DNA of 64,000 bases from Escherichia coli O157:H7 (GTDB lineage: Bacteria > Pseudomonadota > Gammaproteobacteria > Enterobacterales > Enterobacteriaceae): NCBI RefSeq assembly GCF_013167455.1, contig NZ_CP038328.1. One strand, written 5' to 3'. The position numbers were made by a program. The first letter of the stretch is position 1. Each line of letters begins with the position of its first letter. Positions 46,201 through 49,200 of the stretch are shown here, piece after piece.

Positions 46201-49200
46201 TTGGCGATAGGTCACTGAATCCGTATACATCCTGATACCGTGATATACCCAATGCGTCGTTATGCGCTGTTATGGTTTGCCATCTTTTGCCAGTTTTTAA
46301 CGTGTTAATCCTGTTTATACCGATTTATAACGATTAATAACGGTGAATAAATTTTGCTGGTGGGGGATGTATGGGGATTACAGCCCCGTGAATACAGGGC
46401 GTGTTGGCTGGTTAATCTGCCTGGCTTACTGCCAGTAATGCGGCTGATATTTTTTGCATAAACGTGGATTTGGCTAGCCCTTTTGGCGATATCCCTTTCT
46501 CCTTCATCAGCGCTTCCATGTCGCGGTAAATGGCTGAACGGTTTGGTTCTCCGTCCTGAATGTATGCGGTTGTGCCTGATTTTTTCACGAGGAGTAAAAC
46601 CAGCAACCCCATCATCTTCATGTTTCCCTGTTCTTCGTCGAGTTTCCTGTGCTGCCCCCTTCCGCTGCGGCTTGTTTCTTTGATGTAACGGACCAGATCC
46701 CGCCCGCCAAGATTAAGGGCTTTTTCCTCCCAGTTTTTTGTCCCACGCAAATCATCGATAGTATCTGTTACCGCCTTGATTATTGCCTCTGGCGTGCCTG
46801 CCTCCATGAACGGGAAGGAAGCAAGGAATATATCCCCCGCTCTGTATGGCTCATCCTTGCTTGTTTTTACTCCACTATGCAGCCTGATAGCACGTGCGAT
46901 ATGAGTTCTGGCTGATTCGACCTGTTCGAACTTGTCCTGCGGTACGTCGCCTATCCTCATTGACGGATTAAGATCAGCTAACGCAAGGGCCATTTCGTGG
47001 GGAGTGATTGAAACAGAAGCGCAAAGGCGCTCTATTGGCGATTTCTTCAGGATGTTAATCATGATTTAGCCCTTCTGATTGGTGTCACGTTGTAGTGTTC
47101 TCCGCGTTCCAGCGACACTAACAGAGTGGTCCACTTCGCCAGTGCGTCCCGTCGTTCATTGAAATACTGATAGCGGTTGTATATGCCTTCGACTCCCTTG
47201 ATGCGGTGATTGAGGCATCTTTCAGCGACTACCGGATCAACACCAAGCGCAGCTAGATGTGTGCGTGCTGTACGGCGGAAGTCGTGAATAGTGAAATTTG
47301 GAACTTCCGGCATCTCTGCGCGGACTTTTGCCAGCGCAACAGGTAGGGTGCTCTCCTGAATGTGGGGGATCATCCTGTGCTGCATTTTCCGCGCCGGAAG
47401 CACCCAGGCACTATTGCATGACAACACACGCAACTCTCGCAGCCATTCAATAACGGGATGGACGAGTGGAATATCGATGGGGTCGCCGTTTTTGCTGCGT
47501 TCCTCCGGCAGATGCCATACAGCGTTATCAAGGTCGAATTCTTCCCATCTGGCGGCGCACAACTCCATCTTCCTGACACAAAGCGCCAGCAATAGCTTAA
47601 ATGTGAGTTCATTCTCGCGGCTGAAACCCTTTGCGGTCCGCATAGCCTGAAAGAATCGGATTAGCTCTTCACGAGTCAGCCAACGGTCGCGGGAGGACTC
47701 CTTGCCACCAGCATCAGAGACTTCAAACGCAGAGCATGGGTTAATCTCCAGCACATGACGTTTTACCCCGTAGTCGAATATGCGGCGCGTCCAGCGTAGA
47801 ACGTCCGTTGCAATGGTTGGCGCTCCACGGTCAACAATTGCCTTTAGCATCTCGTCAATGTGTCGTGGTTTTACGTCCTCAGCCTTCATATGACCAATAC
47901 GCGGGTTTATGTCTTTGTCGATGCGACGGCGCAGGATGTCGGGATGTTTCCATCGTGGCAGTATCTGACGTTCGAAATATTCGGCAGCAAGCTCTGATAC
48001 GCGCACGGCCTTTTTTTCTGCCTCAATTTTTGCCAGGGCTTCGGCCTTACGCTCCTGTTTCTCTGCTGCTACGTCGTACCCAAGTGCGACGCGAGCGGAT
48101 AGTTCCTTTGCTGTTTCTCTGGCTTTTGATAGCGAGTAATCAGCATAGGAACCAATGACCATTGCCCGTGCTTTTCCTGCGAATTTGTAGCGGAATCGCC
48201 ATGTTGGTATCTGGTCTTCTTTCCGGTAACGAAGGTATAAGCCACCGCCATCTGACCGCCCTTCGAATCGTTCACCTGATTTTATCCATGCCCTGATCTG
48301 AATATCTGTGAGCTTTGGCATTAAGAACTCCTGAACATTGAATAGAGAGGTGTACCCAAACAGATGTTCCAAAATGCAATTGGGTACACCTTTGGGTACA
48401 CGCTAATCATGCGCTTTCTTGCGTCGTTATGATAGCCATTAATTACAAAAAAACCCGCATTATCGCGGGTTTGATTGAATTATTGCGCTTTATTGATTCC
48501 CTCTGATAGCTTACTCCACATTTTGAATCTGCTCGCGCATCTGCTCAATCAACACTTTCAGCTCAATCGCGGAGTTTGTCACTTCGGCATTGATAGACTT
48601 CGACGCAAGAGTGTTCGACTCGCGGTTGAATTCCTGCATCATAAAGTCCAGACGACGACCAACGGCTTCTTTTTTCTTCAGAATGTTGTAGGTCTCTTTG
48701 ACATGCGCTTCCAGGCGGTCCAGTTCTTCGGCAACGTCAATTCGTTGTGCCAGCAGAACCAGCTCCTGCTCCAGACGGTTGTTTTCCAACTGAACCTGAG
48801 CATCTTCCAGCTTCGCGACCAGACGCTCACGCTGCCATTGCAGGATTTCCGGCATATGGGCGCGGACTTTGACCACTTCGGCGGTGACGCCTTCCAGACG
48901 CTGCTCGATCAATGCTTTCAGTGCCTGACCTTCGGTTTCGCGCGCGACAATAAAGTCGTCCAGCGTACCATCCAGCGCCGCGAGAATTTCAGCGGCAATG
49001 GCGTCAAGATCCTGCTCCTGGGCTGCCATCACGCCCGGCCAGCGTAGAATATCAACCGGGTTGATTTCCCCTTCGTCACTCTGCATTTTTACCCAGTTCG
49101 CGGCAGTTACCAGCTGTTTAGCCAGTTTTTCGTTGAGGATCAGCTCACCTTGCGCGCTAACATCTGGCTCATAGCGCAGGGTACATTCCACTTTACCGCG

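Follow-up and report, generated by a model that had tools for sequence, protein, structure and literature searches.

Probable arm-type integrase sites among the GTAC repeats of a yicC-borne satellite island in Escherichia coli O157:H7

The 64,000-nucleotide stretch of the E. coli O157:H7 genome analysed here (contig NZ_CP038328.1; hereafter the window) carries an island between dinD and yicC, and the GTAC-centred 10-mers near both ends of this island are most probably arm-type binding sites of its own tyrosine integrase (Int). The comparisons of sequence that point to this reading show that Int has an N-terminal arm domain, that both arms of the reconstructed attP carry the repeats, at most ~200 bp from the crossover, and attB carries none, and that the repeats and the integrase have evolved together. 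From these observations we infer that Int physically binds the repeats and needs them for integration and excision. Arm-type sites are a textbook feature of heterobivalent integrases such as lambda Int, P4 Int and KplE1 IntS. The first-pass annotation of this DNA had proposed an island between dinD and yicC with an integrase at one end, which our analysis upheld, and had suggested that the repeats are integrase core or arm-type sites marking the island ends. That suggestion divides into parts that fared differently.

Island ends, crossover and repeat positions

Those stretches of the window that were compared with O157:H7 chromosomes were 100% identical to them. In most E. coli genomes, dinD directly adjoins yicC. 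We mapped the junctions by aligning the two island ends with two such empty sites, one from a K-12-like genome (L002) and one from O157 strain 20R2R (L131). The alignments revealed an att identity block, TTGAATCTGCTC, with a left copy at 30208–30219 and a right copy at 48523–48534, so that the island spans 30220–48522 (18.3 kb). This block is just 11–12 bp and was visible only in the empty-site alignments; no long direct repeat was found at the island ends. Because related islands have only TGAATCTG in common at the junction, we placed the crossover within these 8 bp, which fall in the last yicC codons (30209–30216 and 48524–48531). With the insertion in place, yicC takes its last four codons and its stop from the island, so that QNVE and stop replace QNIE and stop. 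To the left of 30208–30219, beside dinD, lie the displaced native 3′ end of yicC and the native terminator, with a 2-bp deletion. The element at 48451–48472 (minus strand), a hairpin followed by a T-run, had been taken for the yicC terminator; it is an intrinsic terminator carried by the island, has a counterpart at this position in all related loci and takes the place of the native one, which is at ~30130–30165 beside dinD. It also stands between yicC and the segment with the arm sites and int.

Three 9-mers had been described near int, namely GGTGTACCC at 48349–48357 (plus strand), its reverse complement GGGTACACC at 48382–48390, and GGGTACACG at 48394–48402, together with two GTGTACA copies near dinD at 30280–30286 and 30292–30298. 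All five are present at these positions. However, the real shared unit is longer than these 7- and 9-mers: when the copies are read in one orientation, they form the 10-mer GTGTAC(C/A)CAA, represented by five good copies and a sixth, degenerate one. The int-distal arm contains two putative arm-type sites on the minus strand, ATGTACACAA at 30278–30287 and GTGTACACAA at 30290–30299, which are 12 bp apart and were assigned by motif count and by the retention of the doublet in relatives. A second putative doublet, proximal to int and also on the minus strand, consists of two copies of GTGTACCCAA at 48380–48389 and 48392–48401, again 12 bp apart and in a layout kept in relatives. A further putative site with the sequence GTGTACCCAA, at 48350–48359 on the plus strand, is oriented opposite to the others; its GTAC centre precedes the int ATG by ~32 bp, and this layout is kept in most of ~50 related loci. 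Between the members of the inverted pair lies a degenerate putative site, ATGTTCCAAA, at 48364–48373 (plus strand), which matches at 7 of 10 positions; the sequence that aligns with it in E. coli relatives, ATGTACATAA, is a good site.

The repeats might have been a chance cluster of a short, palindrome-containing word, and the patterns noticed at first are not enriched across the window. The 9-mer GGTGTACCC, allowing up to one mismatch, has 14 matches window-wide against 7.7 expected, a number reached by 3 of 100 shuffles and not clearly above chance; GTGTACA occurs 4 times in the whole window against 4.9 expected. By contrast, TGTACMCAA was observed 6 times in the 64-kb window against 0.78 expected, a count seen in 0 of 100 shuffles, and five of the six copies are in the arms, no more than 175 bp from the two island junctions. 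This clustering, and the retention of the layout in ~50 loci, refute the chance reading, to which we assign next to no probability.

Equally negligible is the reading of the repeats as core-type sites or crossover points that mark the exact ends of the island. The repeats do lie near both island ends, but inside the island, 61–80 bp from the crossover at the dinD end and 121–174 bp from it at the yicC end. Junction mapping against the two empty sites puts the crossover in yicC, 61–174 bp away from the motifs, and attB, as represented by these sites, contains no copy of the GTAC 10-mer, which refutes the core-site reading. Although the junctions are away from the motifs, their distances fit arm sites, so that only the core reading falls. 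The mapped junctions confirm that the repeats are part of the attachment region at either island end, and the arm-type half of the original suggestion is supported by the position and conservation of the repeats, by their co-variation with the Int arm domain and by the presence of that domain.

Joining the two island ends in silico gave an attP in which the far-arm doublet is centred 77 bp from the core centre and the int-side doublet, which is co-oriented with it, 136 bp from the core centre on the other side; the site with the opposite orientation lies further out, at 174 bp. In the mechanism that we propose, the ends would join in the excised circle at the core TGAATCTG, forming an attP with a doublet on either side at these distances and with one or two opposite sites ~40 bp further out, before int. 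At the core in yicC, Int would act through its catalytic and core-binding domains, and its N-terminal arm domain, through a predicted beta-hairpin at residues 29–41, would hold the arm sites. Int would then connect the arms with the core and so fold the DNA into an intasome, in the manner of lambda, P4 and KplE1. The reconstructed attP had no match in a phage collection, and a contiguous attP junction was found in 0 of 92 complete E. coli genomes carrying both arms. A search by eye for an IHF-type consensus in the arm gave no convincing candidate.

Conservation and concerted change of the sites

Int (47059–48321, minus strand; 420 amino acids; Pfam PF13356, PF22022 and PF00589) has three domains: an Arm-DNA-bind_3 domain (PF13356) at residues 4–90 (E = 1.7e-18), a central domain and a catalytic domain. 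Residues 3–91 also match, distantly, the PDB entries 3ju0 (E = 7e-6; molecule name 'Phage integrase') and 3jtz/3rmp (E = 6.5e-5; molecule names 'Integrase' and 'CP4-like integrase'), chains that we take to be arm-binding domains of P4-like integrases. Relatives of Int were sought in one genome per species, which yielded ~60 proteins with 58–87% amino acid identity from Enterobacterales, Aeromonas, Tolumonas, Betaproteobacteria and Methylococcales. Nearly all are encoded ~190 bp downstream of a yicC homologue, even where the yicC product is just 42% identical to that of E. coli.

The spacer between yicC and int has a constant order in these relatives: the yicC end with GAGCAGATTCA, the terminator hairpin, an AGCGCA block, two direct 10-mers, the inverted copy and int. 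In 51 loci, two direct sites 12 bp apart are found at approximately −78 and −66 from the ATG and an inverted site at approximately −34. A distance of ~44 bp between the inverted copy and the first direct site recurs in most of ~50 loci, many loci have a second inverted copy, and the layout is kept across three classes or orders of Proteobacteria. A sister lineage with 64–66% identity is inserted after a different gene, the product of which ends in KRKRLIKHIKKSK and presumably resembles Der/EngA. Its arm layout is unchanged, which is what one would predict if Int reads arms and core with separate modules. The far-arm doublet is present at a matching distance in L005, L006 and L007, which are E. 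coli islands of another int lineage, and in L096 and L029. Because most IMG/VR proviruses had been cut off at the start of int, they contributed few arms; L093, L096, L100 and L127 were the useful ones. In L096, L127, L029 and L027, the far island end is fused to the core and int arm, forming either an attP or a tandem junction; the attP-like junction of L096 has its sites at 78, 134 and 172 bp, in agreement with the window.

Across these loci the centre of the site, GTAC (rarely GCAC or TAAC), is nearly constant, and the four or five bases 3′ of it vary by lineage. The variants of this tail include CCAA, ACCTA, CACTA, CCCTA, TTAAA and ATAA, and the copies within a locus carry one variant. We tested for concerted change by comparing, within and between loci, the 5-nucleotide tail of the inverted site with that of the first direct site. 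When the best candidate was picked in both cases, tail identity was 4.04 of 5 within loci and 2.41 of 5 between loci; with a fixed offset of +44 and no picking, it was 3.37 of 5 and 2.07 of 5, respectively. None of 5,000 permutations matched either result, counts that are not probabilities because related loci have common ancestry. Ancestry by itself, however, cannot make two separate sites change alike.

Base-pairing between the direct and inverted sites can also produce a hairpin, so part of the co-variation between these two copies could have a second cause. One could go further and suppose that the inverted pair folds, within the int leader, into a hairpin of RNA or DNA that controls int translation or transcription, with the co-variation of direct and inverted copies being compensatory. 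The predicted fold has an energy of −28 kcal/mol (z = −3.5), and 0 of 200 shuffles fold as well. Nevertheless, a hairpin needs two arms, whereas the GTAC unit is also present in a third copy 12 bp away and in two copies 18 kb away, at the opposite end of the island. Furthermore, no promoter was found upstream of the repeats, and a hairpin leaves unexplained why the site sequence tracks amino acids 29–41 of Int (see below). We therefore consider this explanation very improbable.

Integrase residues that follow the site sequence

Sorting an alignment of Int proteins by the motif of their loci revealed that residues 29–41 (LYLRYRKEDQIPT in the window) change with the motif, whereas the remainder of the N-terminal domain is conserved. 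We infer from this pattern that these residues form a DNA-reading beta-hairpin. The CCA motif is accompanied by R31, R33, D36 and T/S40; ACCT by S/C31, Y36 and V40; ATA and TTA by C31, F/Y32, P33, Y36 and F40; and CAC by F36 and I40. Accordingly, this segment of the O157 Int contains RYRKEDQIPT, and that of the E. coli ATAA-type Int contains CYPKNYTVPF. This residue-to-motif rule was derived from an alignment of 43 Int sequences, with mutual information calculated per base and the area under the curve (AUC) calculated by region. It was obeyed outside that alignment by L003 and L004 (ATAA) and by L096 (CCAA). A mutual-information ranking of the whole protein was uninformative, as the 18 motif classes among 43 sequences inflate the values of low-entropy columns.

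As a predictor of whether two loci share the same motif, identity in the beta-hairpin gave an AUC of 0.90, compared with 0.71–0.75 for other Int regions, and for pairs with catalytic domains above 80% identity the values were 0.90 for the beta-hairpin versus 0.57. The far arm follows the beta-hairpin less strictly: GTGTACACAA is found in the far arm of both the window (CCAA type) and L005 (ATAA type), so that either reading is lax at positions 7–8 or the far arm is slower to change. The tails of the two arms are unlike in L027, a locus that may be a tandem of two islands.

A different reader has to be considered, since the island encodes an AlpA-like protein of 71 amino acids (45810–46025, minus strand; PHROG 66, 'excisionase and transcriptional regulator') ~2.3 kb beyond int. 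The repeats could be operators for this or another island DNA-binding protein, steering int expression or the direction of excision, with Int not being the reader. Two further points favour such a role: excisionase sites do occur in the att arms of KplE1 (PMC2951348), and AlpA was left open as a binder of the doubled motif in helper-embedded phage-inducible chromosomal islands (HE-PICIs; PMC10111431). However, AlpA identity was a poor predictor of the motif. Among 24 loci with a detectable AlpA, the AUC was 0.60 for AlpA, 0.875 for the Int beta-hairpin and 0.58 for Int residues 96–420. The Rosenbergiella loci L012 and L013 have identical Int residues 96–420 and AlpA proteins that are 87% identical, and differ in both beta-hairpins and sites (CCAA versus ATAA). 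Likewise, the Xenorhabdus loci L014 and L017 are 97% identical in AlpA and 94% identical in Int residues 96–420, and again both the beta-hairpin and the sites differ. The motifs also differ between L021 and L024, in which AlpA is 97% identical, and the AlpA of L042 is 98.6% identical to that of L003, yet L042 has CCA/ACA-type rather than ATAA sites. In approximately half of the related loci no AlpA homologue was detected within the 6 kb examined, and the sites are still kept. Binding by AlpA or another island protein in place of Int thus appears unlikely, and we regard the AlpA-like protein as the probable directionality factor rather than the reader of the GTAC repeats.

Binding of Int to its arm sites may also have a regulatory consequence. 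Since three of the sites are 30–80 bp upstream of the int start codon, autoregulation of int is possible, by analogy with KplE1, in which the integrase and excisionase sites overlap the int promoter and IntS and TorI mediate autoregulation (PMC2951348). PMC2951348 also cites a P4 study in which Int and Vis are reported to regulate int negatively. In the island, a search of the yicC–int interval gave no sigma-70-like promoter, so autoregulation by promoter overlap is offered here as a suggestion.

A PICI-like satellite and related attachment sites

The gene content of the island is that of a Gram-negative PICI: it has int and alpA, a Bro/Ant zone, a primase module and a size in the range of 10–20 kb, and it has no phage structural or lysis genes. 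Apart from int, its genes encode a 216-amino-acid protein, the AlpA-like protein, an Ant/Bro-type protein and a primase (the last three, like int, assigned with PHROGs); an ssb gene and a ProQ/FinO-like gene (NCBIfam) are also present, as is an IS66-family insertion. PerC-family regulators, a Q-type antiterminator and IS2 were identified from the RefSeq products of a near-identical island. The 18.3 kb of the island include IS2 and the IS66-family insertion (2.36 kb), and without the latter it measures 15.9 kb. The genes follow one another in the order reported for Gram-negative PICIs (PMC6092414; PMC10111431). Assembly of phage DNA from ciprofloxacin-induced O157:H7 yielded an element 'inserted at yicC' of 15,957 bp (PMC4587872), a length that fits this island minus its 2.36-kb IS66-family insertion. 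This suggests that the yicC element of O157:H7 is mobile, with the PMC4587872 element equated with this island on the basis of insertion site and size only. The exact att structure of the satellite, consisting of core, arms, replacement yicC end and terminator, should be useful for tracking the island and for PICI-based tools.

Several mobile islands are known to insert at the yicC 3′ end (PMC8409611), reference PICIs among them (bioRxiv 10.1101/2022.07.18.500453). The present island resembles MGIVflInd1, MGIVmi1 and SGI1-like IEs (PMC8409611), as well as yicC PICIs, in its integration at the yicC 3′ end and in having a tyrosine integrase and a small excisionase. Drift of the identity block has been reported for yicC PICIs (bioRxiv 10.1101/2022.07.18.500453), and deletions in the displaced yicC fragment were also seen in the islands compared here. 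As far as consulted, PMC8409611 and bioRxiv 10.1101/2022.07.18.500453 contain no description of arm sites in other yicC-targeting elements. With lambda, P4 and KplE1, the island shares an N-terminal arm-binding domain and repeated sites in both attP arms that are distinct from the core. As in that group, int adjoins att, so that arm sites fall upstream of int. It differs from all three in recognition sequence and in the number and arrangement of sites. The GTAC repeats are most likely a normal feature of such integrases, in a family where this had not been spelled out before.

The closest counterpart in architecture is the doubled motif of HE-PICIs, tgTGTATTGCantgTGTATTGCa, two co-oriented copies of which are located in attP, 81 ± 2 and 132 ± 2 bp from its centre (PMC10111431). 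This motif was called unique to HE-PICIs, and its binder, either the Int arm domain or AlpA, was left open (PMC10111431, NAR Genom Bioinform 2023). Both systems have a tandem doublet with a period of 12, present as two co-oriented doublets (at 77 and 136 bp in the yicC island and at 78 and 134 bp in L096), both have an integration module of int and alpA, and the units of both begin with TGTA. The sequences are nevertheless different: the yicC unit is TGTAC(C/A)CAA and the HE-PICI unit is TGTATTGCA, the HE-PICI core sequence TGTATTGC is not found in the sites of the yicC family, and the tails of the other lineages are never TTGC. Additionally, the yicC family targets the 3′ end of yicC, whereas HE-PICIs target prophage late genes, and it has one or more extra, oppositely oriented sites beside int. 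Concerning the binder, the co-variation observed in the yicC family points to the Int arm domain rather than AlpA as the reader. The 'HE-PICI-unique' doubled motif therefore appears to have a counterpart of the same spacing in a different and very widespread integrase family.

A broader proposal is that PICI-type integrases in general use an attP design with period-12 doublets ~80 and ~135 bp away from the core, that the HE-PICI motif is one sequence variant of it, and that the sites are read by a 13-residue hairpin in the arm domain of Int through a simple residue-to-base code. We regard this as a serious candidate, while leaning slightly against all of its parts holding jointly. The codons of the beta-hairpin and the int-proximal sites are within ~200 bp of each other, and they appear to be exchanged as one cassette, as in L012 and L013. 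If so, cassette exchange would create orthogonal pairs of integrase and arm sites among satellites that compete for one yicC attB. The ~50 natural pairs of beta-hairpin and site also constitute a data set for studying the DNA specificity of P4-like arm-binding domains and perhaps for re-engineering it.

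Covariation of the integrase hairpin and arm sites in related lineages

The integrase (Int) genes of two Rosenbergiella islands (L012 and L013, 6001–7257) encode proteins that are 100% identical over residues 96–420 and only 38% identical over residues 29–41, the hairpin that co-varies with the arm-site sequence. Their arm sites are also unlike (CCAA versus ATAA), and the hairpin codons and arm sites of these islands seem to have been swapped as one cassette. We also observed a sister integrase lineage (L042, L080 and L101–L128; 64–66% identical). Members of this lineage do not lie downstream of yicC; they follow a gene, presumably a Der/EngA-like one, whose product ends in ...KRKRLIKHIKKSK. 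The layout of the GTAC arm sites is unchanged in this lineage. An IMG/VR contig of 18,849 bp (L096) consists of island DNA and has no yicC, with an attP-like junction mid-contig at 6130–6430. This contig is an excised circle recovered by assembly or, alternatively, a tandem array.

Conserved and repeated sequences near the arm sites

A conserved block, TATTCAATGTTCAGG (window 48322–48348), separates the ATG of int from the last arm site and occupies the same position in many loci. The block is kept in distant lineages (Enterobacterales, Aeromonas, Tolumonas and Pseudogulbenkiania) and could belong to the promoter or leader of int. The stretch that separates the core from the Int arm sites contains a second repeat family, in which two 29-nt blocks (window 48408–48436 and 48482–48510; GCTATCA..N..AAGCGCA in int orientation) lie on either side of the island-borne terminator and are identical at 20 of 29 positions. 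The corresponding places in other lineages carry short repeats of their own, such as TCTCA, TCCCA and CTCCG. These repeats are candidate sites for the excisionase (AlpA) or a host factor.

At the dinD end of the island, the sequence CAGGTGTGCCGCC (reverse complement GGCGGCACACCTG) is present at 30308–30318, 19 bp past the far-arm doublet. It is similar to the GCAC/ACCT-type sites of other lineages and may represent an additional, weak site or have arisen by chance. A single sixth copy of TGTACACAA, distant from the island at 3119–3127, is probably due to chance.

Changes beside the crossover and inside the island

Comparison with empty sites revealed deletions in the displaced native yicC fragment beside the crossover. 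The deletion amounts to 2 bp in both the window (30195–30219) and the related E. coli island L007; in L005 (7365–7385) and L006 (about 1590–1604), about 11 bp are missing. These deletions are similar to the 'attB drift / fragment damage' reported in PICIs (PMC10111431; bioRxiv 10.1101/2022.07.18.500453).

Inside the island, we found that the counterpart in strain Rafaela_II lacks window 34894–37256, a 2.36-kb insertion that encodes IS66-family TnpA and TnpB and a truncated transposase; elsewhere, the two islands are 99.9% identical. Two sets of repeats were also detected. The first (37363–37600) comprises at least three copies of TTTTTTGCGCACTTTTT-like units spaced 83–114 bp apart, which could be replication-origin iterons, and the second (38824–39006) consists of three tandem units of 62–65 bp.

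A second element at selC

The gene for tRNA-Sec (selC) and an adjoining second tyrosine integrase gene were observed at window positions of about 10100–10830, with coordinates carried over from the annotation of comparison locus L001 (offset +10099). This arrangement places the edge of a selC-inserted element in the window as well, and we take that element to be the LEE region.
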